DNA from: Phoronis australis | Taxonomy: Eukaryota > Animalia > Phoronida | Assembly: GCA_002633005.1 (NCBI GenBank) | Contig: NMRA01000113.1 | Location: 134,797-198,796 of the forward strand | Direction: 5' to 3' | Length of the DNA stretch: 64,000 bases | Part shown: one piece after another, positions 2,388-62,269 of the stretch | Numbering within the stretch: the stretch's first letter is position 1 | Layout: every line of letters starts with the position of its first letter | Made by a program: the position numbers and the translations under genes | Notes under the pieces: model-generated | Database searches by the model: none | What the model was told of the DNA's origin: nothing | What the model saw: only the letters and a program-made list of their open reading frames with translations

Positions 2388-2439
2388 TGAAGAATCCTTG
2401 CTTTTTTATTAATCTTTTCTTGGATAAAATTTTCATAGC
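2388..2439 (-). CDS. CAMKK2: CaMKK exon containing the catalytic lysine (AMK)
   Basis: 52 nt, bounded by tttgcag| and |gtgagt. Encodes AMKILSKKRLIKKQGFF, comparable to AMKVLSKKKLIRQAGF in vertebrate CaMKK2. Confidence 0.95.
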
Positions 2440-2866: not shown

Positions 2867-4690
2867 CCGTATTCGCCGTAATAACCGCCCATGCCCCAAC
2901 AAGCGCCCCCCCAAGCGTTTTCAGACTTGGCTGAAATAAGCGCCCAGTTTATGAACGTGTACATGCGAACAATGACGTACCTACAGTCCTAAAACTCGGC
3001 TACAGTAACGTCTTCAATTTATCAAAAATTTTTTACATGGGTCTTCCAGACCACCAGCGGCACTGCTACGTTTGTATTTAGCCGTGACTATACACTTCAA
3101 AGTAACGCAGCGCTTCAAAAAGAACGCAACGGCGTTGCTACTCTCGCGACAACCGTGTCCCACTATGGTCTGACCTTTCAGTACAGAAACATCAACTGTC
3201 TCAGGAATAAAAATAACTCGGTGTTAAACGCACGTGGCCAGGAAGCGTGCGCTACATATATGAACCCATCATCAAAGACATTAGTCAGGAACTATCCATT
3301 CATGAAACAGGTAGCATAGCATCGGTAAGAAATGAATATTGGGACTAATTTCCGGCAATTTCTGATACTACAAAACATGTTTGAGTCATTTTTTAGATGG
3401 ATTGTTTGATTAACCATAATTGGTGTTTTTAAGCCGAATATCCGACAAAATGACAACTGACAGTGACTGCTTACACACCCTTACACCGAAAAAAAACTGT
3501 CAGATAGTTACGTACCCATCCAGCTACACGGCGACTAATATGGGCCTTACCGAGACAAATGTCGAACGTTTTAGCACATGAGACTGGCAAGTGCTGAATG
3601 AAACACGCACTGGTTTAGGCCAACTGCTTGTGCAAATTTCTTTAGACACAATGCACATCTAGCTCGTTAGATTGCATGGCTCTGGCCAAAAGACGGTCTC
3701 TGCTTTGGCAAATGAACTCTGGTGACACGCACGCGCTCGCTTACTCACAAATGCAGACGAACTTCAAAACAAACGTCACGTGACAACAACATGTGTGTTG
3801 TCCAGACATTTTTCTCATCACGTTGCCGATCACACATGTAGACGGCACGATGTTACACAGATTTGTACTTAAACCTGCCGTTAATCCAGACTCCATGGGA
3901 ACTTAAAAAAAATCTTAGGGATGCTCCTTAGAAAACTTAATGAGGATTTCAGGTAATTTGCTCGAGTCGAAACTATTTTTATTCAAGCATTGAAGTCGCC
4001 ATATCGAAGACAGCGATTTCAAGACAGTCAGTCGGCGAGTTTTCGACCTGGGATTTCAGCACAATTTTCTGTAAAATGATCGTAATTTAGCAGCAATGTT
4101 TGATAGCAATGCACCACAGTTTTGTTGAAAGTCTTTCATAGATTACAGATACGTCACAGAGTGTAAATTTGATGAATCTTAGCTTCCGATNCGGCGATAG
4201 TTGGGCATTTGCAAAGGCCAGGACGTTTTAAAATAAAAACATTTCGTAAACACGCAAGTTGATGTCAGGCGTGCATGTTCAATGTCACAGTCAGGAGTCG
4301 AACAGCACGGCCTATTTAAACCAGAGCACATGTTACGCTACAACGAAAAGTTGCAACCTTCGGTGTATTTCCTATTTGTATTTTCATCCGAAATTTTAGT
4401 TATGCGGAACTCGGTGATTCTTTTCATAGCTAAAGCGCCAAACACAAGCTAAACGCAAGACAATCGAGTAACGGTCGTGACATCGTCAAGACAAGGTAAA
4501 AATTACAAACCCGTTATACCGATTCTCGGACTCAAGCCTTATACAGTAGTAATCATCCGTTGAATGCTTTAGTGACACGGGAATATGTGTCGATCCCAAA
4601 TTACCGTTTCTAAAATTTTCCTTGTCCGAAAGTCGTGGGACAAAATTCCGATGTTTATGACAATGTCCGAAATTCGAGGATCTTTGAAAA
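2867..4690. mobile_element. CpG-rich non-autonomous DNA transposon fragment with a pogo/Tigger-like left end
   Basis: Starts TA|CCGTATTCGCCGTAATAACCGCCC with repeated AAGCGCCC subterminal motifs. Related ends occur at 51056 and 54909. No right TIR was found. Confidence 0.45.
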
Positions 4691-4699
4691 ACAGTTTTT

Positions 4700-6603
4700 G
4701 GACCTTGTACGAATTTTGTGGTCTATGAAAAACTCCTAAAGTCGTCATCGTCCATTGTCAACATCACATAAATACACTTGCTAAATTTAGTAAAGATCCT
4801 ACAAACGGTTTGGGAGATACAGCCATGGGCGCAAAAAAAAACTGCCACTACGAGGCGCCACAGTAATCAAAGTCATGGAAATTCAGCGTCAACCGTCCTC
4901 TTCATAGTAAGAACATACATGCCAATTTTCACAATCATACTTATAGCGGTTTGGTTGATAGAGGGGTGGACGCCAAAAACAGACTAAAAAACAGTAAAAA
5001 TGGCCACTGGGTGTCGCAAACTAGGTCAAGTCCATCCGAAAATGGGAAGATAGCGTCATCGCACTAATAGGTGCCTACATACCAAATTTCATGAAAATCC
5101 GTTAAGGACTTGTGAAGATACAGAGGTAAACGTAAAAAAATAAAATTGCCACTGGGGGGCACACTGGTAAGCGGATCCGTCCAAAAGTCGTCATCGTCTT
5201 TTGTTAACATAATATAAATACACTTATTAAATTTCGTAAAGATCCTGCGAACGGTTTAGGAGATATAGCCATAGGCGCAAAAAACAAAACTGCCACTAGG
5301 AGGCGCCACAGTAGTCCAAATCGTCTGAAAATCATTGTCAACCGTCCTCTTCATAGTAAGAACATACATGCCAATTTTCACAATCATACTTATAGCGGTT
5401 TGGTTGATAGAGGGGTGGACGCCAAAAACAGACTCAAAAACAGTAAAAATGGCCACTGGGTGTCGCAAACTAGGTCGAGTCCATCCGAAAATGGGAAGAT
5501 AGCGTCATCGCACTAATAGGTGCCTATATACCAAATTTCATGAAAATCCGCTAAGGACTTGTGAACATACAGAGGTAAACGTAAAAAAATAAAATTGCCA
5601 CAAGGGGGCACACTGGTAAGCGGATCCGTCCAAAAGTCGTCATCGTCTGTTGTTAACATAACATAAATACACTTATTAAATTTCGTTAAGATCCTGCAAA
5701 CGGTTTAGGAGATATAGCCATAGGCGCAAAAAAACAAAACTGCCACTAGGAGGCGCCACAGTAGTCCAAATCGTCTGAAAATCATCGTCAACCGTCCTCT
5801 ACTTAGTAAGCATATACATGCCAATTTTCACAATCATCCTTCGAGCGGTTTGGTTGATAGAGGGGTGGACGCACAAAAACAGACTCGAAAACACTAAAAA
5901 TGGCCACTAGGTGGCGCAAACTATGTCGAATCCATCTAAAAACGGGAGGATAGCGTCATCTCACTAATAGGTGCCTACATACCAAATTTCATGAAAATCC
6001 GTTCAGGACTTTTGAAGATACAAAGGTAAGCGTAAAAAACTAAAATTGCCACTAGGGGGCACACCAGTAGTCGGATCCGTCCAAAAGTTACCACATGCCG
6101 TCCCATTCATGAATGGAACATATGTGCCAAATTTCATGAACGTATGTCAAAGGGTTTTGGAGATAAAGCAGCGGACGCCAGACGCCGGACGGACGCCGCC
6201 CGGACAGACGGAGATGACGGCATAATGCGCCCACATATAAATATGTGGGCACATAAAAATGGCAACTAGATGGCACAAAATGCTTCAAATCCATCCAAAG
6301 ACGAGAGGATAGCGTCAGCTCATTAACAGATGCCTAAGTGTCAAATTAAATGAAAATCGGTCAAGGACTGAAGATACAGAAGGTAAACTTAAAAAACTAA
6401 AATTGCCACTAGGGGGCACAGCGGAATTCCGGTCACTCCAAAACCCATCACCCACTGTCATCAACTCCATAGGAACACACCTGCCAAATTTCAGTAAGAT
6501 ACTGCGAGGGGTTTAGGAGATATAGCCATGGACGCGGACGCCCAGACAGAGATGACAGCAATATGCACCCACATCATGACACAAATATGTGGGCGCATAA
6601 AAA
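4700..6603 (-). mobile_element. Non-autonomous Helentron-type element(s) (HINE/DINE-1-like) with an internal ~450-bp higher-order tandem repeat carrying CTCF-type motifs
   Basis: About three units of 448-451 bp, each made of three ~150-bp subunits. These are followed by a (GGAC/AGAC)n microsatellite, a palindrome ATGCGCCCACATATAAATATGTGGGCACAT and an A-run at ~6225-6259. A second shorter copy ends at ~6603. The left boundary is approximate. Confidence 0.8.
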
Positions 6604-7586
6604 ATGACCACATAATGGGAGCTCCACAGCAGGATACAAATGTCACAACAAAGCAAGATCTGAATAAATGAACATTTGTCAAATGTCAAATTTTGATTTA
6701 GATGTCCGCTTGTTTACACATCTGAGAGAATGATTTGTTAAACAAAAATTTGAAACTGATGTTCATTCATTCCTGGACTTCTCAAGTTATACACAGGGCT
6801 CTACCAAGCTCATGTGCGTTTTACACATTCACTGATCTAATGAGGTATAGCTTCTTTAATGAAGCAGACTTTCATGACTGCAGTGATCAATCCTTTGACA
6901 TCTGCGGTAAGCCACAGGCTAAGCCCTGAAGCAATAACTGATCAACCATTTGCAGTTCTAATGAAAACACCCATTCAAGCATTAAATTATTAAATTTCTG
7001 TCAGCTACAAAATCTTCAGACATTTATTTCAGGCTGAGAATGTAAAATACTTTGATCTTGACTTCATCGCTTTCCATCAGAGCTAGTTTATGTAAGATCA
7101 TCAATAGTCAACCCTAAATTAGTGTCAGTGTTAATTAGTTGTTTAATACATAAGGAAAGGTTTAAATGGTTGATGAGACTACCCGACTGTTAATTTGATC
7201 AAAATGCCAATGAACATTATATTCATCTGTACAGCAGTACAAATTACACTACGACCTAATTTTGCTCTGAGTAAATACAGGTACTAACATCACCACAACT
7301 TTACACAACTATGGACAAAGGCAATATATGTATGTGTTTGTGCATGTGTGTGTACATGAGTAGGTATATCAAATCTTAAAACACTCAATTTTGAATACAA
7401 CAAAAGAAGTCTTCCTTCCAGAAAGCCAGGGCTGCACTCCATAGACCCAAGACAAATCACAAGAAGATCTACACAGTGTTCATGTGGCTGGCTCGTAATA
7501 CAAGGCGATATCTTACAGAGACTTCCATGATCCTATGTAACACAGCTCAGCTGGGCAATGACAAAAATTTAAAAAGCATTACTTAC

Positions 7587-7640
7587 GTAATGTGTGTCAT
7601 CCTCTTCACTATAGGCCAACTTTACTATACCATATGAACC
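7587..7640 (-). CDS. CAMKK2: CaMKK exon with the glycine-rich loop
   Basis: 54 nt, bounded by ttttctag| and |gtaagt. Encodes GSYGIVKLAYSEEDDTHY, phase 0 on both sides. Confidence 0.95.
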
Positions 7641-8124: not shown

Positions 8125-8770
8125 CTTTCCAATCTCATCTTTCAACCTGTACTGATTCAGTGTTTTGTAGCCATCTGTCTCTGATATAGAAACACGTTGG
8201 GATTCTATCGTTGGCTTCCGTTGTAACCTTGGTGAATCCGATGGTGAGTTGTATGGAGAATATGGCAGTTTAGGAAATATTGGCCTCATTGGGTGAGCGC
8301 TAAGGTCCTCTGACTGGCTACAAACGATACGCGGAGCATGATTCATGCCTGTAATGTCACTGGATGTTGTCCGTATTGAGTTGCTAGGTGACGGACTCCG
8401 CCGACCAGCACTACTCATTGTGTTGTAGTTTGAACTCGGAGTCCTTACAGAAGATTCAACGTTTGTCGAGCCATCACTATTACCTGTGGGGCCAGGTACA
8501 AACAAGTGTCCCGAGGCATCAACCACAGAGACACGACTTTTACTCAAGTCTTCCTCTTCAATCTGAATGTGTCCATTTTGGTCCTCCGTGGGCACTGACG
8601 AGCGTCCGGAATCGTTGGTTAAATTAGATGATTTTCTGTTAAGTTTCTTGGAAACAGGCTCCTGTCGGCCAACCGAGTCTATCAACATTGTGGCAACAGG
8701 TGGCGTGGTGTGATCTCGCATATTCGGTCCTTCGTCGGACTGTTCTTTACTGGAGTCAAAGTGGCTCTGT
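8125..8770 (-). CDS. CAMKK2: CaMKK large N-terminal exon: Ser/Pro-rich regulatory region and start of kinase domain
   Basis: Part of ORF 7960..8721. Ends LPYSPYNSPSDSPRLQRKPTIESQRVSISETDGYKTLNQYRLKDEIGK|gtaggt. The frame is open from the acceptor ttttgttgcag| (8771) with an in-frame ATG at 8721. The 5' boundary is less certain than the 3' boundary. Confidence 0.9.
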
Positions 8771-10539
8771 CTGCAACAAAATGAAAATCATTGTTTAAGC
8801 ATATTGTTTGCCTGCCAGCACTATGAACGGTTAGAGGTGAAACTCCGGAACTAGCTCCGCCAACCACACCCTCCGGGTTAGCACCACGTACGACGGTAAC
8901 ATAACAATTAGCAACTGGTGGACAAGTAAACTGCAATGCAGTGTTTCAACATTCTGTTCAAGAAAAAGCTCTACTTGAGATATCAGGATTGTTTGCTGAG
9001 TCGATTACACCATCACCATTACAACTAAAATCTTTCTTTTGTTAATTACCAGGCTCAGTATTTTGTCCCCGGAACACCAATTATCTACCACCCTGAATGA
9101 ATACATTAATGTAAATACCAACCACTCAAAACTGTTGTCAACAAATAAGACTCATTACAGTGTTTTGACCATTTTTCATCATATCTTCTGTGAAAGAAGG
9201 ATTTTAGACTAACTTTTCACGAAGAATTCAATTTCAGAAGCCAAACACGTTAAAAAATACCAGTTTCTGTCTGGAACATTTCAATTTATTTCAGCCAGTA
9301 TTTTAATGCTGTGAACACATCACTAATGCAATAACTGCCATGTACAACTCATTAGGAGCTTAGATCAACTTTGGTGATATCAAGTGTGGACAGCAACACC
9401 GCAATGCTTCAGTTGATGTAGAGAAGCATTGTCCAACTACAAGATACCACTGAACGGCCCGGTTTCCAAATGCACTCGCACAATATCAAAACCTGTGGTG
9501 CAGTCCGAAGACACAAGGCACTCATGAAGCACTCGTGGTAAGAAATCTTTACTATGCCACGGACACACAGAAGTTTATCCTACAATTCAACATTCCAACC
9601 TCACCACCCAACCACTTCAGCAGCCATCATTTTGCTAGCAAGGTCCAAGTTATACCCATGAAACACTCAGCTTTCACTCGAGTAATTTTACATGCTTTTA
9701 CGAGAGTATCTCATGTCTACGAATCGCACCTCTGATATACGGCTTGTCCCTGTCACAAATACAGAATTAACAGAGCGAGTAATTAATAGCAGAATAAAAT
9801 CGGTTGTTTTACAAGAACTGTAATTAATAAGCACCATGTTTCGCTTCATGAAAACAACAACTGCAGTATAGATCCTTAGAGCTGGAGACTCAGCAGTAAG
9901 GCCAATCGATAGCAGTAAAAAAAACAAGGGCAATGTAGATGAGGCAAGGATACAGCAGAAATGCACCAATGCACATAACACGCACTATACCAGTCCTGAG
10001 TGGCACCTTCCAATTTTATTACTATAGTTAAAACATCAAGGTTGATGTCACTAAAATTTAGAGTTTAGAAAGCCTTAACATATTGGCTCGTTTTACCTTC
10101 TGTTTTACCGCAATGTATGTGCAAAATTTAAGAATTCAAACACCCCACTAATCTTAATAGCTTCCTAGCTGAGCACGCCTGAACATTGATAGAATTTGTC
10201 TACTAAGAAACATGAGAAAACTAAATGGAAAAAATTAGATTTAGTGCTCTAGAAAAAAGACCTTTGCACAATTCAGTCATGGTTAGGCCATAACAAGTCT
10301 TTCACCCACCTATGTGTTAGCACATTACTACAGTGCCTGTCCATCCTGGTGAATTAGAACATGATGGTGATGGTATCTACCTTATATCAGGTGATACTGT
10401 GAGCCCCCGCATAAGGAAATTAGTGTGAAAGGACACGGGCAATAACAAAATGATGTCTCAATTCTGAAGATACAAAACTTCAGGTGTTAAGCTAATTTAC
10501 AGAATGCAGCAGCAACATTAAACAATGTTGTGCAAGAAC

Positions 10540-11277
10540 GTCCCTTTAACATCACCGTATCCCACGCACGTTGAATCTGTCGAGGGAAATACGGCCATGT
10601 AATAAAATTTTCCGTATTCACCTCCCGCACTACTTCAACTCTGACACGCAAAGTTCAAAAGGTAGGTCAATGTCGACTCGACGTCGTTAGCCAGTTCGAC
10701 CACCAAACTTTCAGAAAATAGTTTAAATAATACAATTATAGCAGTGTAAATAACGCTCAACATACAATCAGGTCTCAATCGTAACATCTGGAACAAGACT
10801 GTTAGTTATATGACAGTTCTGTCTCATTTTTCATTTGTTAAATATTTTATCATCTGAAACTCAGGCGCCATTTCTCGGTGACTACACTATCAAATATTGT
10901 TGTTATTACTTTTTTAACTATTTTCAGGAAATATTACAAGTTCAAGGAAACGTTACCCTTGTTTTCATCTTTGTAATCTCTTCTCAAGTAATAAATCATC
11001 ACATTTAAAACTGTTTCCTTTACTAGAGAAAACTTGCAGCCTTACGCGCGAGTACACACATATAGGATGTGATCCACCACGTGAACAGTCTGAGTGAAGT
11101 ATTTAATAATCTGCGGAAAAAATGAAAGAAACTTAGGAATTCGAAGCGTATGGGATAAATACATAACGTACCTCGATTGGCGTACATGAAGTCAGTAATA
11201 TCCTACTCGACATTATTCCGCGTATCGTGGGATATTACTTCATGTATGCCACTCTCGGTATGTTTTGTGTATATATC
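10540..11277. mobile_element. Inverted-repeat element ending in a ~120-bp imperfect hairpin (11157-11277)
   Basis: ACATAACGTACCTCGATTGGCGTACATGAAGT..AATATCC pairs with GGATATTACTTCATGTATGCCACTCTCGGTATGTTTTGT. The loop is the reverse complement of ~10559-10587. Confidence 0.5.
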
Positions 11278-14200
11278 GCTACATCTAATTTTGTTAACAT
11301 TCTTATTCTTTGTAGTGTGATCAATTCTGAGAAGAGCAGAAATATGGCACTAAAAGGCAAACCTCACCTGTAACGTTGAGGATGAGTGTGCATGAGTGAG
11401 TGACAAGTGATGTCATGTATTGAATTGACATACTGCGTATATAATGCAAAATTCATCAGTTTCCAAGTAATCACTGATTTGAGTTTTTAATTAAGACTGA
11501 AGCAAAGTTTGCAACAACAGTAGAAGAGAAATGCATGAAATATTTATATGTATGAATATATATATGAAATGTCACACATATACATAAATGTATATGAACT
11601 GTTACACATATACATAAATACATAAATTCTTGGGACTTAATCTTTGAAACAGAAACACTGAGTAAATGGACACAAATGAGTCCAAATTAAATTATTCTAT
11701 CCTCGATTCAAATCGAGTTACTCCAACCACTCGAGGTTCTGAACAAGAAATTACCCAATCACATCAGTATAATACTTCTAACTGCAACCACCAACACGCC
11801 TTTCTCTGTAATTTCCAGTTTTCTCCAAAGAATAACAAGCATCAAACCTCACCTCAAAATCAGGACCCTTGTAAATGCCCTTTCACCTCATCAGTATGCA
11901 AGTTTCTTTGTACTTTATCTTAACAGTCAACATTTATGATCTAGGGCTGCTTATAACATTTACCTTGGTTTCAATGGGCATTCCATGGCTGATTCCAAAT
12001 TCACTGACATAACAAGAGAATGCAATACTCCAGAACTGTGCAACATCAAAGCTATAAACCTACTGGGGTAGCCTTCTGTTCTCACTGAAGCTGACCACCC
12101 AACAGATCCTAAGACTCCAGTCAAGTGAAAGCCGACTCCATGGTGTAAACATGACTTAGATTTAACATAATCTAATCACTATATTCCAGCTCAGCTGTTT
12201 TTAGTCTAGGTTATAATATACTGACCTTATCACTAACTAGACTAAACTTTCCTTGCTGAGTAACTAAGTTTGCCTAAAGAGCCAAGAAAAACTAAAGACA
12301 TGTGTCATCTCTGGTACCTTTTACAGAAAAATAAAATTTCACCACACAATTATAGCGGGCAAGAGAAATATGATTCTTTCATGGAAGATAAGTAAGTGAT
12401 CATTTTTGCCTGTAACTGGGGAGAAATTACCACGGTATATTTAATAACATAACATTATTGCTACCATTCAATTATTAACCTACCCACCTTGGCATTGTTG
12501 ACACGCCATCATTTACTTGCATCATTTCATTTAATTTACAATCAGTTAAGGCATAAATTCATGTTAAAAGGATTAAACTGGATTAAAAGTTAATTTATAA
12601 TAATAATATTAATAATATGTTATTAATATTATTAATAATAATAATATTATTATTATCTTTCCTTTATTTGTACACATGGTCATCGGCCCAAAGTATTAAT
12701 ATAATGGACTTGAAAATTGCAAAGCCCTTAAAGAATCACAGTACATGTAACTTGTAAACTAGAAGAACTTGTAAACCACTCAAGTCCAGCTTCTATAAAA
12801 TATCACTTCCTTGACCTTAATCAAAATATACTGTTTTAAGCAATCCAGGAAAAAAGAAACACTATAGGCTCTTTCATACTGACTTTTTAAAGTCCGGTCT
12901 GAGCAGAATGTCGAAGTAAACTACCAAGTTAACTGAACTGTTCATACCGGCTTCGGTAATTAACAGACATCACAGTAAACGGCAGATGATGTTGTTGTCA
13001 TGGAAGTAATCGCAAGGTGGCGCTGCATGCATCACATGCACGCTAAGATTTTTTAAAAGTGACAATGAGACGTTTACATGTGCTAATTGACATACAACTT
13101 ATAAATCGATTGGTGATTATTTGAGCAAAATATAAGCAGCTAATAGTGACAACAATGCCCTTCAATTGTTGATGATAACAGCGGCTCCAGTGGCGATAAC
13201 TTCGATGGGACTGAAGTTGACTGTTCATACTGCACCACAGCGTCTACGCTCTGCCCTAAAATCCAGCTGTTTATTTATTGTGAAGTGAATTGGCACTGTT
13301 AACTTCGATCCAGGACTCGTTCATACTGACTGCAACTCCCCAAAACATCGACATATCGTCATTTAGTATGAAAGGGCCTTTAGGGAGTGAAATGTGGTGC
13401 AACAGTGTACTTCAATATAGAAGCAATCTACAATAATGAATTCTACAATGACTTACATCAATATCGGTCATATTATTAGCATTTTATACACAGGGGGATG
13501 CAATTAAGCAACAAGTTCCTGAATCAAACAATTATCTGTGACCATCAATTGCCAGGGTAGGATTTCTCATGTTTCAACAGTGCTTGTATGTTTTATCCCT
13601 TATCAGCATTTAATGGTATCATTTACACTAACTGTGTAAATATGGAGAAAATGTAGAAGACAAACACATAGTTAATGCCTATTGAAAGAACAATGAAATA
13701 TTAGTGTGTTATGACTGTAGGCAAAGATATGTTTCTCTATTCTGGTATTACTAAAGTCATGTCCCGACTCCCTTACCCTTGAATAACCTGCAAAAAGCCC
13801 CCCCTCCCGTTCAGACAGCCAAGTGTCCACATTACACACCAAGCACTCGACAAATACAGCGTAGGAAGGATTAGACACCCCCATGTATGTATCTGAGCAA
13901 GTAATTGCTCCTAACACCTCTGCAGGTTTGCATCCAAACCATGCTTGTGCTGGGCAAAATTACCCTATAACAAGTTACCCTACCTTGCTAAGGTGTGGTA
14001 AGTAGTCACACATGTGTCAAGTTTCCCAAAGACAAATAGCATCCACTTAACTTAGCAACAACCTTTTCTAGAAGCAACTTGTTCTATAATGACTTGTGCA
14101 CACTTCTAAGTCTGAATGCATTCTTGCGGCAATAAGTGTCAATTTTACTGAGGCGGTCGACATGCACACAGAACACACATCTAGTGGGCATAGTGCCCTC

Positions 14201-19339: not shown

Positions 19340-19690
19340 GAACTAGAGCTACACAAAGCCTTGAAATGCTGAGACTGCTCCCCAAATGGTATGCTTCTAG
19401 GGGTGTTTGTTAGTATCAAAACAATGGCCATCCGGTGGCGCAGAATGTGTCCGAACAGTCTCCAAATGGAAAGGCATCATTTCTCTAATATAAAACTATT
19501 TGCCATGAAAATCCATCAAGGAACTCAGAGTAGAGAACAAAAAATTGCCATTAGGGGGCACAGCAGTAGTCGGATTAGTCTGAAACTTGTCATCATCTGT
19601 TGCCAGATCCATAGGAACACATCTGCCAAATTTAAAAAAGTTCCCACAAGGGGTTCAGGAGATGTAGGTACCGATGCAAAAAAAACAAAA
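19340..19690 (-). mobile_element. Degraded HINE-family copy
   Basis: AACTAGAG...TTGAAATGC end, and subunits with CCATCCGGTGGCGC and CCATTAGGGGGCAC. Confidence 0.65.
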
Positions 19691-41466: not shown

Positions 41467-41680
41467 TAACAAGAGCAACGCAGAGCGTTGAAATGCACCC
41501 ACGAATGCATTGTAAATGGTGTACTTTTAGGGTTAGTTATTTCATTGTATCATAAAAATGGCCACTAGATGGCGCAAAACATACAATCCATCCAAAAACA
41601 GGAACACGCCATATTTCCTAAAAATCTGTCAAGGAACTTCAGAGAAACTAAGGAAAACAGAATAAATGGTATTTCACTCG
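41467..41680 (-). mobile_element. 3' terminal part of the HINE family (subterminal inverted repeat plus stem-loop)
   Basis: The minus strand reads GTGGGTGCAT-TT-CAACGC-TCT-GCGTTG-CTCTTGTT. The motif CCACTAGATGGCGC is at 41562. Confidence 0.7.
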
Positions 41681-42549: not shown

Positions 42550-44318
42550 CCGACTTGCATTGAAATTTGCACTCTGTAGACAAAGACAAGCTCAGAATCG
42601 GTAAGAAACTGTTATGTTCATTTTTTCATCCGGTATGAGTTTAGAAATACATTCGAAGTTTGAAAAAAGTCGGATTCTATACAGTTTTATTCCGATTTCG
42701 TCTGTGATCAGGAGTCGATACTATATTTCTCTTCAAAATGTTGTTCCGTTTTTTGTATCCACAGTATGTTGTCCTTTGTCTTAATTCAATACTGTTACTT
42801 AGGAGTGGATTTCGCACACAAATTTGTATTGGCAAACATCTGAATATTACTAAAAAGCGCTTTGGCAGCCCGCTTACGCCAATGCAAGCACACGCGGCTG
42901 GCTGGCGTTCAGTTCACTTTTGTTTTGGTTATGTGTACAAGTTAACAGAGAGCTGTGACCCCCAATGACCCAGCTAGCACTGTCCAACTCCAGAAATTTG
43001 TAACATGTACTACTGCGCATGCGCTAAATCTTGCCATCAGCCCTCCATAAGAAATACACAAGAACAGGCTATAATCAGCAATTTGCAAGTGAGGGGAGAT
43101 AGCTACACAATTTGCCGATAGCCAGTGGCATAGAGTGTATGTTAAGACTTGTTACTGCCAAATATCAGCGTCACTGGTGAAAATTTTTCCACGTCTCTTG
43201 AAGTTTGAAGTTTGCCCCGTTGAGGCCTATGCTAACGATCGTTCGGAAGCCAATATTTGAGCGCATAGCTCATTTTGAAGTCAAGTTTGTGGCTGAATTC
43301 ATTTTGCCATCGGATTTGCCGATAGCCTAGGTGACTACCAGGAGTACTCAGAGGTTGCTAATCCAAATTTCATGCTGTTTTTCGAAAATTTTTCCACGTC
43401 TCTTGTGTTCAGAAAATAGATCAATATACAGTGCTGTGAGATGAAATATTGCAGATCGCCTGGTTGTCTTGCATTGAAATTTGCACTCTGTAGATGAAAG
43501 ACTAGCTCAGAATTGGTAAGAAACTGTTATGTTCATTTTTTCATCCAGTATGAGTTTAGAAATACATCCGAAGTTTGAAAAAAGTAGGATTTTATACAGT
43601 TTTATTCCGGATATTTCGTTTGTGATCAGTAGTTGATAGGCCTACTATAGTTATCTTCAAAATGTTGTTCCGTTTTTTGTGATCCACAGTACGTTCGTCT
43701 ATTAATTCAATACTGTTACTTAGGATTGGATTCCGAACACAAATTTGTATTGGCAAACATCTGAAGATTAATAAAAAGCGCTTTGGCAGCCCGCTTAAGC
43801 CAATGCAAGCACACGCGGCTGGCTGGCGTTCAGTTCACTTTTGTTTTGGTTATGTGTACAAGTTAACAGTGAGTTGTGACCCTCAATGACCCAGCTAGAA
43901 CTGTCGTGCTGTAGACTGTGGAATTCCAGAAATTCCAAATACTGTTATTGTAAACTTGACTTTGCTCTGCAGACTACATACAGACTTCGGGCTCACGGTA
44001 CTAGCGCCCAAGCTTCCTGACCTTTAACCTAACTATGCGTTGTTATGATTGGTTAGGGACATGGCGCTAAGCGTCACCTAGTGGATCAAGAATGTTACAA
44101 ATTTCTGGCGTTGCGTACTGTAGACTGTGGAATTCCAGAAATTCCAAATACTGTTATTGTAAACTTGACTTTGCTCTGCAGACTACTGACTTCAGGCTCA
44201 CGGTACTAGCGCCCACGCTTCCTGATCTTTAACCTAACTATGCGTTGTTATGATTGGTTAGGGACATGGCGCTAAGCGTCACGTAGCGGATCAAGAATGT
44301 TACAAATTTCTGGCGTTG
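42550..44318. mobile_element. TIR element with internal duplications
   Basis: CAACTCCAGAAATTTGTAACAT at ~42985 is inverted at ~44091-44112 and ~44297-44318. 42554-42978 is duplicated at 43468-43898, and a ~205-bp tandem duplication covers 43909-44318. Confidence 0.7.
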
Positions 44319-45479: not shown

Positions 45480-45773
45480 ATCATCAAAGGTCGTCTTCAC
45501 ACTGAGAACATACATGCCAATTTTCAAATGATTCGGTTGATACGGGGGTGGACACCAAAAACAAGATTTGAAAACAGCAAAAATGACGGTAGTTGGATCC
45601 GTTCGAAAGTTCGCTCATGCCATCCCATCCATGAAAGGAACACATGTGCAAAATTTCATGAACATACCTCAATCGGTTTTGGAGATAGAGCAGTGGACGC
45701 CGGACGGATGCCGCCCAGACGGACGCAGATGACGGCATAATGCGTCCACATATAAATATGTGGGCGCATAAAA
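45480..45773 (-). mobile_element. 5' terminal part of the HINE family
   Basis: Subunit sequence, GGAC microsatellite and the palindrome ATGCGTCCACATATAAATATGTGGGCGCATAAAAA. Confidence 0.75.
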
Positions 45774-46172
45774 ATTCTTCTTTGAGTCAAAAATAATTGC
45801 TAAAACTGACATATTTCTTTTTTTTTCAGAGGCATGCCACAACCACTCAAAATACTACCAAACGTTGTACCATATAAACCATGCTAAAAGCAAATTTTCC
45901 TGAAAAGTTTTTATTGTTGAAAATTTTGACAAAGTGAAATGTCACCTGCTTGCCACATTATCTCTCAAACTGAACAATTTTTACCAATGAAAGTCTGTGT
46001 ATGGTGTTTTGAGAGGCTTGATCAATATTAGCGTACTGCTGTGACCAGAAGAATGGGGAGTTGGTGCGAGTGCATTTCTGATCGGACAATGCGGTGATTT
46101 CAATCAACTTTGCATTCACAGGTGACTATAAATTCAAACAAATTTCAAGCACAAGAAGTTAAGTATACTTAC

Positions 46173-47030: not shown

Positions 47031-48559
47031 ATAACAGCAATTTGGCTTAAAAACACTGTTCATGCAATTGGTCGTGGATACCATGAGAAATTGGGATTTT
47101 GGACGACCTACATATTGCTAAAATCCTGGATGAACCTTTGGTTCACATACGTGTAGCATGTTTCACATACTGTAGAAATTGATCGCTTTTGTGACAAAAT
47201 GTTTCTGCGTTATTACACACTCAAATGACTTTGATTAGGGCGTAGGACTCTTCACTTCAACATGTTTCACAAACGAATACACTTCAAGCACACCATCAAC
47301 TGCAGGTCATTTCAGATAAAACTCTTCACAAGTAAATTACTGGTAAACAGTCTTAAATGTAGGATGCCTTGATCAGTATAGAGTCGGAAAATTTCACAAC
47401 TGTTTCTTGACAAGTGCGTTTTTCATTGAGTGCACTTCCATAATTGAAGACCATATTAATCTACATTCATTATTGGTCGACTACCCGATTTGTTTCAAAA
47501 GTTAAACAACGTCAAGTAAATGTTAGTATAGTGATCACTTTTACAGATTCTGACTCTAGAGTTTCACAAACGTTTCATGTGACCAAGAGTCTTCATCAAA
47601 GCAAATTGCCAACAATGCCAGTCTTAAATTACTGTTATGGGCAATCTTATTGGCAAGTTGTGAATTTACCAAATATCTACAAAACTATACAATGACTGAA
47701 TTAAAACTATTCATTTTACAAAAGCAAAAAGCTTGCAGAACTTAATATCAATAACAAGATATAAATAACTAAGAATCTTTTAAAAATGCTATCACTGGGT
47801 TTCAGTTTGCTTATCACTTTCATTTTATAGAACTTTTGATGGTTTCATAAAAATCCTAGAAGTCCCATGGCAAAATCTCTCCAATTTTGGAAAAAAACAA
47901 TAGCCAAAAATCTGTTTTCACTTTCCAAAGACTTACAAGCACTGCTGTAAATGCATGTCCCAAATTCTTAAACATAGCCTGATGATACAGCACTTATTTG
48001 GTATAACTTATTTCTTACAAAACAAGAGCATAGCAAACTGTTGAAATGCGTCACAGTATGATTCTAAGAATGTTATTATGACAATATAATACATAATATA
48101 AAATCAAAACGGCCACCAGGGTTTGTACCACAAGTCAAGTCTGCCATCTTCTTGAAATATGCATATTTTGCCAAATTTTGTGAACATCCATAAAAGAAAG
48201 AACTTTGTAGATAAAGAACCACAGATAAAGAAAATCTACCACAGTTGTCAGGCTTGTCCCGAAATCAATATCAGGTGCTCTCTTCTCATTAAGAACACTT
48301 TTTCCAAATGTCATGAATAGTTTCCCTGGCGAATACGGTAACACACCCAACGTATGATGTCATAATTTTAAACCATCACAAAACAATATTGAGTAAAGAT
48401 CTCTTTTGGAACCAAGAACCGTACCTTGACGTGGTAAGTGTACAGCCGTTTCGTTCATATCTCACGGACTGGATTCACCACCGGGTGTGCCCTCTGTTGT
48501 TGTAGAATAAAACGATAAGAAATAGTAACGGGGGTTCCCTAATGTCAGGGGAAATCCCG

Positions 48560-49800
48560 CAACAGATCTAAATACACCGTAGGTAGATCAAATCTTGGAT
48601 CTCTGTTAAGACTAGGTTTGTGGACTTGGATCTCAATTTCTTCTCGTACCCTGCGCTTCCACTTTTTTGGGTGTAGACTTAATATACTGAAGTCCTCATC
48701 AGAGATCTGATGATGTAGATCTCTGGCATGCTCTTAGACAGCACTAGTAGGTCTAAGGTTGAGGTTACAGTGATCCTTAACCCTGGTCGATAACTGGCAA
48801 ACCGTCTCACCGATTAGTTGTCAATACACTCACCACACTAATTTTGTATTCGTACAGCACACCACACCTCTCAAGGGGGTTGACACATCTTTCACTGATG
48901 GGGGGATGGACCGAATAGTGTTAAACAGTTTGTGGATGATCGTAGGATCAGGGAGGTCACTCTGTAGTGGTTGTTCCTCGTTACGTACATCAAACATCCA
49001 GTTGCGATATGCTATCGTTTGTGAGACAGGTGATTGGAGGCGAAGCCGAGATACTGATCAGTGTGTGTAGGCTTGGGGTAAACGGAAATGGAGATGGAAC
49101 CATCATCGTGCAGTCGGACTGGAGTGTCGAGGATTTAGGAGAGAATGCCATATTGTTCCAGGTAAATTGGATGGATGGATCTAGGCTGCTGAGGTGTTAG
49201 TGAATTCATCAATTAGCAGTTTCATGGATGAAAACAAATGCGTCGTCAACATAACGACTCCACTGTAATGGGGGAGTAATGGAGCTGTTGCAATAGCACA
49301 AGACTCGAAATCTTCCAAGAGGATGTTAGCAACGATGGGTGAGATGGGAGACCCCATGGGCGCTCCTTGGATCTGATAGTAGAACTGGCTGTCATAGACA
49401 AAATAAGTAGTGTTCAAACAAAAGTCCAAGAGTTGTATGACATGATTAACCAATAGATGGGTGTGATTACTGAGATCACCACCGTTCCCTAACCGAGACT
49501 TGATAACCGTGACGGCTTTGCCCGAGGGAGCACTAATGAACAGAGCGGATACATCGTAGGATAGCATCTAACGTCCTGGTGGTACTGTATCTCAATTTCA
49601 CTGATTCTGTCCATGAAGTCTTCACTGTTGTGGATGTGATGGGGAGACAAACCCACCAATGATGCAAGAATGTTTGCCAAAACTCTATCTGAGTTGTAAG
49701 TGATACTGCCAATGTGTGCCAATGCACGAGACGATAGGTCTTAGGGGAGCACCTCGTTTATGAATCTTAGGTTAACCACACAGTTTAGGCCCTTCATAGG
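48560..49800 (-). mobile_element. Decayed Penelope-like retroelement (RT plus GIY-YIG endonuclease)
   Basis: [53 protein letters not shown] and C-terminal EEIEIQVHKPSLNRD motifs, broken by frameshifts and stops. Confidence 0.9.
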
Positions 49801-50149
49801 ACATGGGGTAAAACTGGTTAGGCTCTTGGTTCCAAAAAAGGGATCTTTACTCAATATTTTTCATCACTTAAATGGAACCCAGTAATATACATAGTCTCAT
49901 CATCGAACAATGTGTGTGCAACTTGCCCAGACAGTTTCATACAACAAATGAAGTTATAGCATTTTTCATGACTGCAAGTATCCTAAAAATTTATTTGGCT
50001 CTGGGAAATGACATTCCTAAAAGCTTGGCAGTGCAAGAGTAAAGGGACATTCTCAGCAAGAAAAGTAATTTTACTGAAAATAGCAGTAGCTCGAGACAGC
50101 GTAGTGAAAAACGGAAAACATCCTCTAAAAGCCCGTTCAAATTTCTATA

Positions 50150-50848
50150 AAAATCCATCAGGGAACTTCAGAGAAACAGAGGAATAATGGAAAAAATGAA
50201 ATTGCCACTAGGGGCACTGCGTTTATTGGATCTGTCTGAAAGTCGTCCTCATACTCGTCCGTTGTGAACTTCATTATGATAAATACACTTGCTAAATTTA
50301 ATAAACATCCTGCAATGGGTGTAGGAGATACAGCTATGGGTAAAAATATGCCACTAGGAGGCGCCACAGTAGTCAAAGTCATCGGAAAATCATTGTCAAC
50401 CGTTCTCTTCACACTAAGAACATATATGCCAATTTTCTACATCATTCTTAGAGTGGTTTGGTCGATAGTGGGGCAGATGCCACAAAACAGACTCAAAAAC
50501 AGTATAAGTGGCCACTAGGTAGCGTAAAATATCTATCCATACGAAAATAGGAGGAAAGCGTCATCTCATTAACAGATGACAATGCGCTACATTCCATGAA
50601 AATCCGTTGAGGATATTCGAAGCTACAGAGGTAAATGTAAAAAACTAAAATTACCACTAAGGGGCACACTGGTAGTCGGATCTGTCCGAAATTCCTGTTC
50701 ATGTGTCGTCAGCTTCATAGGAACACATCTGCCAAATCTCATCAAGATTCTGTGAGAGGATTAGGAGATACAGCTATGACGCCTGGACATTGGACAAACA
50801 GAGATGACAGCAATATGCACCCACATACAAATATGCGGGTGCATAAAA
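50150..50848 (-). mobile_element. Copy of the same HINE family
   Basis: Subunit motifs at 50205, 50351, 50512 and 50654, and the terminal palindrome ATGCACCCACATACAAATATGCGGGTGCATAAAA. Confidence 0.8.
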
Positions 50849-51055
50849 TGTTTTTCAGCAATAAAACAAATAATGTCCCTTTAAGAACTATGCCACAAGC
50901 GATTCGGAAGGTAAACTGAGAAGAAAATAATTAATGCCATTAGAAAGAGTAGGCCTTGTAGACTTTTGTCCAAAGAATGTGATCAGATTCTCTGTTTCAT
51001 GACTTACAATAACAGCAACATTATGCAATGAAAATGATGAATTCAATGACAACTA

Positions 51056-51369: not shown

Positions 51370-52623
51370 GAAGCCTTAGTGAATCACTCAGAAACTCGCA
51401 ATACTCTCTTTGTCAAACCTTATGTTAAGACGATTTCCAAAGCAATCCCGTCATTATTGCCAATACGAAAAACGGATTTGGTCTTTTGGGCATTTGAAGA
51501 CTATTTTAAATACGACAAATTTGTTAAGAATCGATGGCACAAAACGTGTAATCAGCATTACAAAAAGAAGTAGGTTTCGCGCGCAAACGCTGTGGACCAT
51601 AAACAAGTAGGTCTCTTAGTATGGGATTTGTAGTTAAATCGTGGTGGTGTAGTGGTAACGCACGCGCGCTCTATGCGCAAGGTTGTGAGTTCGAGTCTTT
51701 GGTACTTGCAGTTTTTCCTATTTGACACGTTCTCCGTGTTTTTTTTGCCTTTTTTTCTTGAATACTTCAGGAATCAAGGAAAATACTTGATTTTTAGAGG
51801 TAAACACAGAAAAATTTCCTGGGCGGGAAGGGGGGCAAACCCCCCTCCCGACCTCCCCCCATTCGGTGCTATGCGCATCTACAATCGTGGGTCAGTTTGC
51901 GCACATGTTTACAGCCGGACAAAATGTTGGGCCCCCCCTTGTGATATCCTAGATCCGCCACTGTATAATACAAAGTTTAGATTGCTGACAACATCAACAG
52001 ATCGTTTTTAAATCTTATTCAAGAAAATGAATGTCTTTGTAATGTCTGCCTGGTATTAGGCTTAGCTGAAACATTTTAAGCAAAAATGTCATAAATGTTT
52101 ATGGTTTGAAAGCAAAGCATTTTAGCAGAAAGGTTTTAACAAAAGGCACACACAGGCATGGCACTGCTTCTTTCCTGACAGGAAATACCACACACAGGCA
52201 TACATGTGTCAACAATGAAATGTTGCCACATTACGTAAATAATTCATGCAAAAACGGCTGCTTCCGCTCAACAGCAATAACAAGTTTGTTGTGTTTTTAA
52301 GCTAAAATGTTTTGGGCTACCAAATACAAAATAACAAACTTCACCCAACATGGAATTATAAAGTTACACATAACTATTGCCATAAGACACAGAATCACAA
52401 TCTTTGACGGGGTACACAAAATCCCCAAAGACAAATATTCTTAGGTTTCCAACAATAATCACAGAAACTGGTATCCCCCGAAATTTAGCCACAGTTGAAA
52501 CACTGCTAACTTTTGTCAAAGTTTACTGATTTCGTAGGATAAAACCAGATGTTTGTTTAAAATAATTGTGAAAACTCATGAAATCTTGTCTAGTTTCATT
52601 CCAAACAATTCAAAACTGAACAT

Positions 52624-53100
52624 TCGCAGCACAAATAAAAAAGTTCACGTTCAACGTTTCGTCTATTCATTAGACATCATCAGGATAATTATTTACTAAG
52701 GACAGCAAGTGCCAACATAGAGCTCAGGTAACATCCATACTTCACTTCCTTTGTAAATAATTACCCTGATGATGTCTAATGAATAGACTAAACGTTGATT
52801 GAACATGAACTTTTTTATTTGTGCGGCGATCGTCCAGTTTTTAATCTTACTTCGGCCAAAAACGGATTCAATAAACAATTCAAAACCAATCAAAACGGTA
52901 AAGAAGGATTCGGCAACTTTGACATCAAAATTGCAGGTGTAAAACTGAATGTTTTCGTGAAACGGGAATGGTTTCTGTTTCACAAACAGTTCAATCAATC
53001 ATTTCGAATCCAGCAGTTGCACATCTCCATTACCTTTATGCCATCCTCGTAACTTTCTAGAACGGTTCACCCAAAATTGCTTTCTAAACTTTAGACACAT
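52624..53100. mobile_element. Penelope-like element fragment with an inverted terminal repeat
   Basis: ~75-bp inverted arms at 52624-52696 and 52753-52829 contain CTGATGA..GAAAC. They are followed by a broken + strand ORF starting MNFFICAAIVQFLILLRP. Confidence 0.55.
52652..52686 (-). ncRNA. Minimal type I hammerhead ribozyme-like motif
   Basis: The minus strand reads ATC-CTGATGA-T-GTCTA-ATGAA-TAGAC-GAAAC-GTT-GA: both core boxes, a 5-bp stem II, a loopless palindromic stem III and a very short stem I. Confidence 0.55.
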
Positions 53101-55315: not shown

Positions 55316-56168
55316 AAACAAGAACATTGAGATGCGCCTACCAATGCACAGGGGATGGTGCGCTTCTAAGGTTGTTTATTTGTATCATAAAAGTGGCCAC
55401 TATATGGTGTAGAAATGTCCAATCCATCCGAAAATGGGAACTTGCCATCACTTCTTTAATAGAGGGCTATTTACCAAATTGCATAAAAACCTGTCAACGA
55501 ACTTCAGAAAATTAACAAAGGAAAACGGAAAAAATGAAATTGCCACTAGGGGGCACAGCGTTGATTGGATCCACCTGAAAGTTGTCGTCGTCTGTTGTTA
55601 GCTTCATATAAATACACTTACTAAATTTAATAAAAATCCTGCAGTGGGTTTAGGAGATACAGCTATGGGCACAAAACAAAACTATTAATAGGAGGCACCA
55701 CAGTAGTCAAAGTCGTCATAGTCAAATGTTCTCTTAACACTGAGAACATATACGCCAATTTTCAAAATCATCCTTAGAATGGTTTGGTTGATAGAAAAAA
55801 AGACTTGAAAACAGCAAAAAAATGGCCACTAGGTGGCGCAAAATACCTCGATTCCATCCGAAAATGGGAGGATAGCGTCATCTCACCAATAGATGCCTGT
55901 ATTCCAAATTTTATGAAAATCCGTTGAGGACCTTTGAAGATACAGAGGTAAACGAAAAAATTAAATTGCCACTAGGGGGCACATCGGTAGTCGAATCTAT
56001 CTGAAAGTTCCCTCATGCCGTCCCATCCATGAAAGGAACAAATTTCATGAACATATGTCAAAGGATTTTGGAGATAGAGCAGCGGATGCTGGACGGATGC
56101 CAGACAGACGCCAGACGGACAGACAAACGGCATAATGCGTTCACATATAAATATGTGGGAGCATAAAA
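55316..56168 (-). mobile_element. Near-complete copy of the same HINE family
   Basis: Has the AAACAAGA...ATGCGCC end, five ~145-bp subunits, the GGAC/AGAC microsatellite and the terminal palindrome plus AAAAA. Confidence 0.8.
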
Positions 56169-56763
56169 ATTGGCCTTTCTACGCAACTGAAACAAGACTA
56201 ACCGTCTTGATATGGATTGTGGATCACGGGATATTGTTTTGTACAGTAATGAGTAGTTCTAAGATACGATGAATGTTTCTATCAGTAGTTATTGATTTTA
56301 ACAATTTGATAGCAAACATCTTATATACATTTTATCATAGCGAAAGCGCAATACCTTGAGTTAATCTGAAACTCTGAGAAAATTGGCCGAGCTGACAAAG
56401 ACAAAACACGACTTCTTTAATTTACGAATATTTTGCAACACTGCCTTCCTAGCAAAACTGCTCATTTCAAGTTGTCACTTTCAAGAACAACATTGTGAAA
56501 TTATGTTATAAAACATATACTTGTTGGCCAGATATAACTTTAATCCCATCCAAGAGCAGTTATGTTACCATTTTATGAATTTAAATTGAAATAAATTAAA
56601 GAAATTAAGTAGCGTATAAGAAATTTCCAAGTTTATACGTTTCCAGCAACATTCATAGTTAAGGCAATCAGGTTGCAAATCGCTAAGACACAAATCTAGG
56701 AGACCATTACTCATTACAGAAAGCTTATTAAATAACTCAACATTGATTAAAGAAACTACTTAC

Positions 56764-60109: not shown

Positions 60110-61412
60110 TCATGTCTTGAGCAGGCTGGAAAGTGTGTGCATTTGGAGTGATTTGCAAACTAAAAACCATGTTTCATTTTTTGGCTTTATAATACCAAGC
60201 AAGTCCTCTCTCTCGTGTGTAAACACAGCGTAGCTATGATCGGTGACCGTGTGACCGAGGGCACGACTGTCGTCATGTTCAGTATTAGGGCTATCGGCGT
60301 TGATTTCGAAATCTCCTCCGGTTTCAGACAAGTTGAGAGTTCTTGGGTTGCTTAACTTTTGTAGCTTTCACCACTGTGGATATGCTAGAGACGTTAATTT
60401 TAAGAGGACACTCCGTCGGAATGTTGTTCTCATACGTCTTTCTTCCACCAAGAAAATGTTCGCTGCACACACAATGGCCCCTAGGCAATTACATCGCACT
60501 GGATACCGCAGGCATTCAGGGGTGATAGTACATCCTCACAAAAAGTTACTCGTTTCAAAATACAGCAAATAAAATCAAATGAACATACATATAGGAACAT
60601 GGAGTTATAATTAACACATACCACAACTCTGGATACAATTTAGTCAACAAAACTTGAACAAATCGATGAAAATCTGTCGCGGTTTGCTTGAGTTTCTCTC
60701 AGTTACCGGGTGCCATTTTGAGGAAGTTACGTGAAATTACGCATGTTGACGAATAAAAAGTCCAAGGGACACGAATCTTACAAGTTTCACCCGATACCTT
60801 CTCATGCTATTTTACAAGTGTCGCACGCTAGCGTCAAGCGCTTCGCTCAGTCTCGCACTAACCTTTGCCTAACTCACGTGATTCAGTTGACATGCTTTGT
60901 GGTTATCGCGCACGCGGTGATAAAATTAACGGCAACCAAAAAAGTGGAGTTGTAATTCTTCGCCAAAGTCAACTTAATTCTCACAACTAAGCTTCATCAA
61001 AGAAATGTATAGAAGTAGAAAGGACCAATGAGGAAAGTAAGCGTTTGTTTAAATGAGTTTTAAGTGTAGAATGTATTTTTGACGAGGTGAAAACTCGAAA
61101 TCGGTAACCCAAATCCGGTCACGTTTCAAATACATTAAAGTAACGAAATGAGTACAGAAAGCGAATAGAAGTATTGTAGCCCCTACATGGCCAACCGAGG
61201 GGCTACGTGTTGCCTACTAGATGGCCCCACGTTGGTTTGACTGCGCTAAATCTCCCCTTGCTCCCAGCTCTTCTAATGTTGTTTATCCATTTTTCACGAA
61301 GTTCTTGGTTTGCAGGGAACACATAAAAACTCAGATTTTTATCTCTCTTGTTGTTTTTGAAGCAGCCAGGAACACAACAAGTGTATCCGCCGTAAGTTTT
61401 CTTCGCGCTCAT
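60110..61412 (-). pseudogene. THAP zinc-finger ORF split by an insertion
   Basis: 61221-61412 encodes MSAKKTYGGYTCCVPGC...LSFYVFP...REKWINNIRR...PTWGH. From 60473 downward it continues CVCSEHFLGGRKTYENNIPT in the same frame once the insertion is removed. A DHSY motif follows after a frameshift. Confidence 0.85.
60482..61220. mobile_element. Non-coding insertion with an 8-bp target-site duplication
   Basis: ATGGCCCC at 60474-60481 and 61221-61228. Ends are TAGGCAA... and ...TTGCCTACTAG. Confidence 0.8.
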
Positions 61413-62269
61413 ACCGCGTATTATGCTTGTTACTATGGCCGCTTTCGGAATCCTGACCACAGCACCCACGATGCACCATTTTAACCTAATTTCAATATGG
61501 CGTGGCTGCAAATCCGCTATTCAGCACGCCCTTTGTATTGAAGTAGATCAGCGCTAATGAAGTGGAAAGGTAATTTCTAGCATTACTGTCTCAACAATGT
61601 TTGTTATTAGTACCACCAATTTGGTTTTCTCTGACATTTGCAGAGTTATAGCCTGCAACTCTGGAGAGCAGTTTTAACTTGGTACATTATAAATATTACA
61701 AAATGACTAAAAAGGTTAACTTGAACGTGTTTATCTTCACAAAGGGCCACTTCCCAAAGGAACGAAAAGTTTCGTATTGCTTTTCTTTATTTAATTTTTA
61801 ATGCTTCTGCATACTTGTTTTTTTTACTAGGAACGGGTTGATAAATTTTTGAACTTGAAGTACCAAAGCAGTGGTAGATTTTGATCGCCAGCTAAACTTA
61901 ATTAGTTAAGTTCATTGTGAGCATCTTCCTTCTGGTATTACAAATTCCGTCTCATCTCATGAACATAGAGCTGATAGTCATCGTTGTGCATACAGGTTTC
62001 CTTTCCCCCTAATTGAGCTGCATCAAAGGCCAAAAAGTCTACAGTGTCGACGTTTTCAAAATATCAAAGGTCCACCGTTCTTAAAATTCGAACCACCCCC
62101 TGCTCAATGCTGGCTACGGGCCTGAATAGAATATATGCATTTGAGTTGAGAGATTGAGAGAGGCGTCCAATAAGAAGTCGCCCCTGCATCGACCAAATCT
62201 CTGCATGCTACTGCCCCACGGCTGAAAATGTCTGTTAAGTACCTTTTGTTGCATGCAGAATGTTGCTCG

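Follow-up and report, generated by a model that had tools for sequence, protein, structure and literature searches.

A stretch of Phoronis australis DNA (64,000 nucleotides, referred to below as the window) contains a regular array of CTCF-type motifs that all face the same way within a tandem repeat. The array raises the question of whether a Helentron-type transposon carries a set of CTCF sites that selection has maintained, and what such a set would serve. The original prediction placed the motifs at 4845, 5004, 5149, 5293, 5453, 5598, 5743, 5904, 6049, 6263 and 6406. A scan with the pattern CCASYAGRKGGCRS taken from it, an IUPAC consensus without a weight matrix and with up to two mismatches allowed, recovers 11 of these 11 starts, all on the plus strand. 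The spacings are likewise as claimed (159, 145, 144, 160, 145, 145, 161 and 145), and continue with 214 and 143 to the last two motifs. Comparison with shuffled sequence confirms the excess: the window contains 34 matches against a shuffled mean of 4.81, and 0 of 100 shuffles reach 34. The plus strand holds 28 of the 34. Scored on the IUPAC consensus, three of the 11 array motifs are perfect, five have one mismatch and three have two, with a non-degenerate column altered in five of the 11.

The repeat has a period of 449 bp at 4734–6088 (3.0 copies, 92% matches by TRF). The run of nine motifs arose by local triplication of a block of three subunits, so these nine do not count as independent; a second, older copy, separate from this run, holds the motifs at 6263 and 6406. 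An assembly artefact was ruled out as the source of the triplication, since neighboring units are only 88–92% identical and thus differ by 8–12%. The run is composed of the following features:

4734–6088, no strand assigned: 449-bp unit (subunits C-A-B), 3.0 copies, 88–92% identical (TRF, BLAST)
4845–4858, plus strand: CTCF-type motif of subunit A, two mismatches (pattern scan)
5004–5017, plus strand: CTCF-type motif of subunit B, two mismatches, both in core columns (pattern scan)
5149–5162, plus strand: CTCF-type motif of subunit C, one mismatch, in a core column (pattern scan)
5293–5306, plus strand: CTCF-type motif of subunit A, one mismatch, the A at column 9 that is typical of type A
5453–5466, plus strand: CTCF-type motif of subunit B, two core mismatches identical to those at 5004
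5598–5611, plus strand: CTCF-type motif of subunit C, one mismatch; the family majority has the consensus letter at 5602
5743–5756, plus strand: CTCF-type motif of subunit A, one mismatch (pattern scan)
5904–5917, plus strand: CTCF-type motif of subunit B, perfect (pattern scan)
6049–6062, plus strand: CTCF-type motif of subunit D, perfect (pattern scan)

Elsewhere in the window, a two-copy tandem repeat of 205 bp (43905–44318) spans an isolated CTCF-like word on the minus strand (44071–44084).

The array belongs to a non-autonomous Helentron (HINE) on the minus strand, as a copy that is truncated and has part of its interior triplicated. Read on that strand, members of the family begin with a T run, a subterminal repeat and its inverted copy, followed by a GTCY microsatellite and the subunits; beyond these come a 3' subterminal repeat, a short palindrome and an end rich in T. 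The array region resolves into two copies:

4734–6259, minus strand: HINE copy without its 3' end; in plus-strand order, a partial C, two rounds of A, B and C, then A, B, D, the microsatellite and the 5' terminus
6172–6218, minus strand: degenerate GTCY microsatellite, limits approximate
6225–6259, minus strand: 5' terminus with a T run, the subterminal repeat (6254–6243) and its inverted copy (6236–6225), which form a 13-bp hairpin (z −5.9)
6260–6604, minus strand: part of an older copy from a related subfamily; it has a 5' terminus of its own and carries motifs at 6263 (one mismatch) and 6406 (perfect)

The 5' subterminal inverted repeat (subTIR) is present at 6254, 6598, 45769, 50844 and 56164, with the complementary inverted repeat (IR) that closes the hairpin. 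GTCY runs occur at five of the six 5' ends inspected, the sixth being a bare terminus. Sister copies in the window supply the other end. A 3' subTIR matching the 5' one occurs at 41493 and 55332 with one mismatch in 10 letters, and the 3' palindrome has a 6-bp stem at 41476–41490 that is eroded in the copies at 55325 and 19350. Junctions are T-rich, with four to six T at 6/6 5' ends and CTTGTT at two 3' ends; the younger copy (4734–6259) and its older relative (6260–6604) also meet at a T run. Subterminal inverted repeats of 11–15 bp near both ends are part of the HINE/DINE-1 anatomy (PMC4067079, in excerpt), and the anatomy of oyster Cg_HINE includes the GTCY microsatellite (PMC7492417, in excerpt). 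The 5' subTIR, the IR and the microsatellite, together with the 3' subTIR and palindrome of the sister copies, support the proposed Helentron-type identity, and the HINE class is established. The array contains no ORF of at least 120 aa, positions 4500–6700 gave 0 Rfam matches, and neither Rep nor helicase was found among the 293 ORFs scanned with Pfam out of 443 beyond 9 kb.

The array lies inside a 5.1-kb intron of a minus-strand CaMKK gene, of which three exons are used here:

8125–8787, minus strand: large coding exon of CaMKK, upstream limit open-ended, used to calibrate the RNA strand
7587–7640, minus strand: CaMKK exon upstream of the array-bearing intron
2389–2439, minus strand: CaMKK exon downstream of the array-bearing intron

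The closest proteins to the N-terminal exon of this gene are from gastropods and brachiopods (44–49% identity), which marks the gene as spiralian, and one homologue search with the same exon returned no match. The kinase exon has 2002 matches, with no identical protein among them. From 9 to 61 kb, the Pfam scan of 293 ORFs revealed no other gene of the host. The interval 9000–61000 thus comprises about 50 kb without a recognizable host coding exon, and possibly corresponds to long 5' introns of CaMKK. Other sequences of possibly mobile origin also occur in the window. A THAP domain at 61206–61520 on the minus strand is the sole match above the Pfam cut-off among the 293 of 443 ORFs beyond 9 kb; it lies near inverted repeats (58700–58900 and 62380–63100) and is possibly the remnant of a P-like transposon. 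A reverse-transcriptase fragment at 49181–49567 (minus strand) has a weak Pfam match, and a long nested inverted repeat at 52608–52845, with arms of 47–52 bases, is MITE-like.

Sister copies were identified in the window by BLAST and with a profile built without the motif. They lie at about 400–1530, 19350–19690, 41470–41680, 45480–45780, 48040–48330, 50140–50850 and 55325–56170, and the motifs of the oldest (400–1530 and 48040–48330) are degenerate. Five of the sister copies are as follows:

55325–56170, minus strand: complete sister copy whose five subunits run F, C, A, B, D on the plus strand; both subTIRs are present, and the copy serves as the reference for the anatomy
41468–41680, minus strand: 3' end of a sister copy, with 3' subTIR (41493–41502) and palindrome (41476–41490)
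50138–50850, minus strand: sister copy with four subunits and the 5' terminus
19350–19690, minus strand: short, old sister copy with two subunits
45480–45777, minus strand: sister copy in which an internal deletion took the B body and its motif

The family is abundant. In the DNA run X1, 27,469 contigs fall on 676 bases of the element. The depth of a unique flank is 46.8, and the summed depth reaches 1.0–1.2 million at the 5' terminus and 1.8–2.7 million at the A and B motifs. The ratio of summed to unique depth gives roughly 2 × 10^4 elements and 4–6 × 10^4 copies per subunit type, figures retained as an order of magnitude alone, since subunit types cross-map and summed depth is not copy number. 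The family likely carries about 10^5 predicted CTCF sites genome-wide. Two runs with other organism labels (X7 and X9) contain the family at low depth, possibly by carry-over, and were left out.

RNA from the family comes almost entirely from one strand. Three stranded runs, all from one study, were calibrated on the minus-strand CaMKK exon (8136–8699), where the values for first mates on the plus versus the minus strand are 52.5 vs 1.2, 32.6 vs 0 and 41.6 vs 0. At 5880–6067, family reads lie on the same strand as CaMKK with ratios of 57:1, 45:1 and 250:1 in the three runs, at or beyond the limit of the library itself, which is about 43:1 in X10. A control repeat (10392–11331) is almost balanced, at 1.4–1.7:1. 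At 80% likeness in X10, 24,005 of 12.75 million records fall on the element, at about 30:1. The family RNA corresponds to the 5'-to-3', T-rich strand of the element, and the CTCF motifs point against transcription. Priming of oligo-dT on the A-tracts was ruled out as a source of the bias, since the RNA strand is the T-rich one.

Reads that cross the 5' terminus come from heterogeneous flanks (agreement 0.37–0.46), the RNA data list no sites at which many molecules start or end within the element, and the variant letters in RNA are mostly those in DNA. Together, these observations fit read-through of many copies. They argue against the alternative that the asymmetry is due to a promoter of the element itself, or to a few abundant transcripts, with genomic copies unoriented to genes. 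The arrangement of the copies argues against it as well: 33 of the 33 subunits found in the window without use of the motif lie on one strand, and they represent about 9–11 insertions over 56 kb (400–56170). A promoter would account for an RNA yield per unit of DNA depth about twice that of the control repeat and for the increase in depth near the D motif, 5-fold in RNA compared with 3-fold in DNA, and the three runs do stem from a single study; we nonetheless consider this alternative rather unlikely. A location in CaMKK introns is demonstrated for copies below 8.8 kb alone; for much of the remaining window, base skews hint that the minus strand is the one transcribed. Per full copy, the avoided strand has seven A-runs and 23 near-AATAAA words, compared with 0 and six on the other strand, which makes purging of that orientation plausible. 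Oriented insertion, an element promoter or an effect of CTCF on the polymerase may each cause the strand asymmetry. A literature search for an orientation rule in Helentron insertion or survival returned nothing on point.

As to what has kept the motif, the patterns of sequence conservation leave the odds about even that the element, selected as a replicator, keeps a CTCF site, and that CTCF is the binder selected for. Between types A, B and C, subunit identity is 42–61%. The expectations that such diverged subunits would each keep the motif, and that the motif would be more conserved than its flanks, both held up: between types, motif identity is 0.78 against 0.52 elsewhere (P 0.0037; one copy per insertion, no consensus building, column shuffling, 18/19 subunits), and the majority sequences of six types agree at 11 of the 14 motif columns, although the six types share ancestry and are hence not six independent origins. 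A re-phased alignment of 12 subunits gives 0.82 vs 0.51 (P 0.0067), and adding the subunit with the deleted motif gives 0.72 vs 0.51 (P 0.051). The conservation counts leave out the oldest copies, 400–1530 and 48040–48330. Columns 8 (G/A), 9 (T/G/A) and 13 (G/A) vary across the six types, where the consensus has R, K and R; the three varying columns all fall among the six degenerate ones, with a probability by chance of about 0.055 (calculated by hand). Type A has an off-consensus A at column 9 in all copies. Column 14 is C in 6/6 subunit types, and presumably corresponds to the 3'-terminal C that invertebrate CTCF orthologues are reported to need (10.64898/2026.10.19.759930, in excerpt). An exact match to the consensus is expected by chance in a 150-bp monomer with a probability of 1.4e-5.

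At least two blocks of the subunit are constrained, and among them the motif ranks first. A second conserved block, CCAAATTTCATGAA at +78, has a between-type identity of 0.72, near the 0.78 of the motif, and the A-tract directly upstream of the motif is conserved equally to it. The monomer is therefore under other constraints as well, which CTCF does not explain. On this basis, the conserved block could instead be a cis-acting signal for transposition (an iteron for Rep/helicase, or a signal for nicking or folding), or be bound by a zinc-finger protein other than CTCF; in either case the likeness to CTCF would be incidental. The constraint seems to act on the element lineage and not on the locus, the A-tract and the CCAAATTTCA block are conserved along with the motif, and the B-type motif can form a 5-bp hairpin, all of which such a signal would accommodate. 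It would not, however, explain why motif variation is restricted to three degenerate CTCF columns, nor the low probability of an exact match (about 1e-5 per monomer). The B-type hairpin is broken by the letters that types A, C, D and E have at column 9, complete subunits show no folding advantage over their shuffles (z about −1), and the mobilization signals of HINEs are ascribed to the termini (PMC4067079, in excerpt). We consider a cis-acting signal, or the site of another zinc-finger protein, unlikely to be what is conserved.

Within subunit types, the constraint is weaker. Same-type copies from independent insertions differ at 44 of 265 motif letters against 512 of 2182 flank letters (16.6% vs 23.5%), with a P of 0.013 that is nominal, as pairs are not independent. 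An estimate based on type majorities (7.9% vs 18.6%) was set aside because triplicated units bias the majorities. The gap between motif and flanks in same-type copies is modest, as it would be if selection acted on source elements and the copies then decayed. The units of the array itself show neutral drift, with motif differences of 8/98 against 67/839 in the flanks, a comparison of low power. Function at the CaMKK-intron locus, which had been suggested, is not supported by motifs that drift like their flanks. Constraint on the long between-type branches, with little after insertion, is what selection on source elements predicts.

The same drift would also suit a purely neutral history, in which an ancestral CTCF-like word was preserved as a GC-rich patch by subunit exchange or uneven mutation and its binding was never selected. 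The motif is only slightly more conserved than the second block (0.78 vs 0.72), its P value hinges on one subunit, and old copies are degenerate. Against such a history, the CpG in the motif of types A, B and F should speed decay rather than slow it, and the invariant run contains type-specific letters at columns 8, 9 and 13 that patchwise homogenization would erase. We therefore regard a neutral origin of the conservation as distinctly unlikely.

The original prediction also described the array as phased at roughly nucleosome-core spacing and proposed that it may act as a directional loop anchor; the readings as loop anchor and as nucleosome phasing are both weak. The site spacing of 145–161 bp corresponds to 131–147 bp between cores and, with the footprint of CTCF added to the core, leaves less than one nucleosome between neighboring sites. 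With such a gap, joint binding of CTCF would exclude nucleosomes, not phase them. Monomers of 140–180 bp, always in one orientation within an element, are the norm in oyster HINE arrays (PMC7492417, in excerpt), and the phase and co-orientation of the motifs are accordingly explained by tandem origin. In excerpts of a preprint (10.64898/2026.10.19.760054) and of an echinoderm study (PMC13317027), oriented CTCF loops are reported absent from protostomes and echinoderms; a second preprint (10.64898/2026.10.19.759930, in excerpt) likewise describes CTCF outside vertebrates without oriented loop anchoring. Nucleosome phasing at CTCF sites is also reported absent from both groups (10.64898/2026.10.19.760054 and PMC13317027, in excerpt). 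Orthologues of CTCF occur in molluscs, annelids and rotifers, and flatworms lack CTCF (PMC10658182); in the open chromatin of an annelid, the CTCF motif ranks first (PMC7854359).

In favor of a role as an insulator or loop anchor, every copy in the window has the same direction. Helitrons reportedly mark supersized loops in the sperm of Xenopus tropicalis, a link between Helitrons and chromatin architecture that bears on novelty and on any insulating role. Even so, and although transposons are the source of many mammalian CTCF sites (PMC7786948, in excerpt) and C. elegans barrier elements derive from Helitron minisatellites by a protein-free route (10.64898/2026.08.08.743475, in excerpt), a mobile insulator or directional loop anchor that is of use to the host, the array being a boundary in the CaMKK gene, is very improbable, given the core mismatches in five of the 11 array motifs, no constraint within the array, a density of one element per 8–20 kb that would be too high for domain boundaries, and the reported absence of oriented loops and phasing in protostomes and echinoderms.

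Under the preferred reading, that of a CTCF site kept by a selected replicator, an ancestral monomer with one site would have been duplicated into five subunits. Elements binding the CTCF of the host would have been copied more often, and the motif would in this way have been kept in diverged subunits of 150 bases. If jointly occupied, sites 145–161 bp apart could exclude nucleosomes over about 0.7 kb, which might keep the donor open and free of methylation, accessible to a Rep/helicase supplied in trans by an autonomous element. On this view, selection would fall on the few source elements and not on each insertion. The open-chromatin step is weakened by fly CTCF sites, at which nucleosome depletion is absent away from promoters (10.64898/2026.10.19.760054, in excerpt). 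The family-wide orientation of the RNA most probably means that copies lie in the sense of host transcription, set either at insertion or by loss; the lost copies would be those putting the A-tract strand into pre-mRNA, and CTCF would not necessarily be involved. The reading in its full extent, with a five-site cassette selected for CTCF binding and about 10^5 sites in a spiralian genome, nearly all against host transcription, is doubtful.

If this cassette reading is true, most of the CTCF landscape of the animal would be transposon-borne and polarized by transcription, without loop anchoring, and would show of what use CTCF is to a selfish element, and perhaps its pre-vertebrate role. The object worth following is the family, not the decaying copy at 4734–6259. 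With copies graded in age and motif quality, the family lends itself as a natural experiment in which binding, methylation, accessibility and insulation could be compared for the role of CTCF outside vertebrates. One repeat family can also dominate in silico censuses of CTCF motifs and orientation statistics in invertebrate genomes, and the near-complete strand asymmetry of the RNA suggests that Helentron insertion or survival follows a rule linked to transcription.

A database scan that demanded motif plus box, and that shows occurrence rather than enrichment, returned 14 loci in metagenomes, two in 596 Gb of prokaryote genomes and none in viral contigs. Likeness to the Phoronis family beyond the motif was found in 0 of the 14 metagenome loci. 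CTCF-type cores thus occur in other animal-like repeats. Seven of the 14 loci represent one unrelated repeat family, two of them with terminal inverted repeats of about 70 bp; the others comprise two of a microsatellite-bearing family, one tandem repeat beside an inverted motif, two that are the same GC-rich locus, and a singleton. One member of the seven-locus family (L006, 1700–2130) consists of three tandem units of 125–128 bp, each with a CTCF-type core and a CTGATTGG word, which we take to be a look-alike of the CCAAT box; single-unit copies akin to this repeat occur in L004, L007, L008, L010, L012 and L014. The remaining locus of the 14 (L002, 386–490) is a short minisatellite of CTCF-like words, CCACCAGGTGG, in three copies about 37–41 bases apart. 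The literature search, with most subscription journals, supplements and Repbase/Dfam outside its scope, found no description of CTCF-site arrays in Helentron/HINE monomers.

Mammalian CTCF-bearing retroelements typically have one site per element, compared with about five per element in Phoronis, a protostome, and mammalian CTCF anchors oriented loops. In Drosophila, a rolling-circle element is said to have spread ISX dosage-compensation sites. Amplification of mammalian B2 SINEs, HERV and MER20 likewise seeds CTCF motifs genome-wide (PMC7786948, in excerpt), and Caenorhabditis Helitrons have likewise spread many, often clustered, sites (heat-shock elements) for one host factor (PMC6927752, in excerpt). 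The Helitron site clusters of Caenorhabditis and Drosophila come with binding data and host effects, whereas the factor in Phoronis is predicted to be CTCF and the constraint seems to be on the element lineage. The PATC insulators of C. elegans are similar in that internal repeats of Helitrons are tied to transcription, with a proposed anti-silencing role (10.64898/2026.08.08.743475, in excerpt). PATCs, however, involve DNA curvature and 35-bp units in an animal without CTCF, whereas the Phoronis family has a predicted protein-binding motif in 150-bp units. The closest structural parallels are oyster Cg_HINE, Pearl, DTC84, MgE and Drosophila DINE-1, which likewise have a 5' subTIR with IR and a GTCY microsatellite (PMC7492417 and PMC4067079, in excerpt). 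Elements of the oyster Cg_HINE type, as described in the same excerpts, also have a short, fixed-orientation array of 140–180-bp monomers, a 3' subTIR, a palindrome and T-rich junctions, and conserved boxes common to otherwise dissimilar monomers. By contrast with these, the Phoronis array consists of five ordered subunits that are 40–60% diverged, each with a CTCF-type core. HINEs whose monomers share conserved boxes are known, and so, separately, are transposons (Helitrons among them) that spread sites for host factors; what is new in Phoronis is the combination of the two, together with the strand rule.
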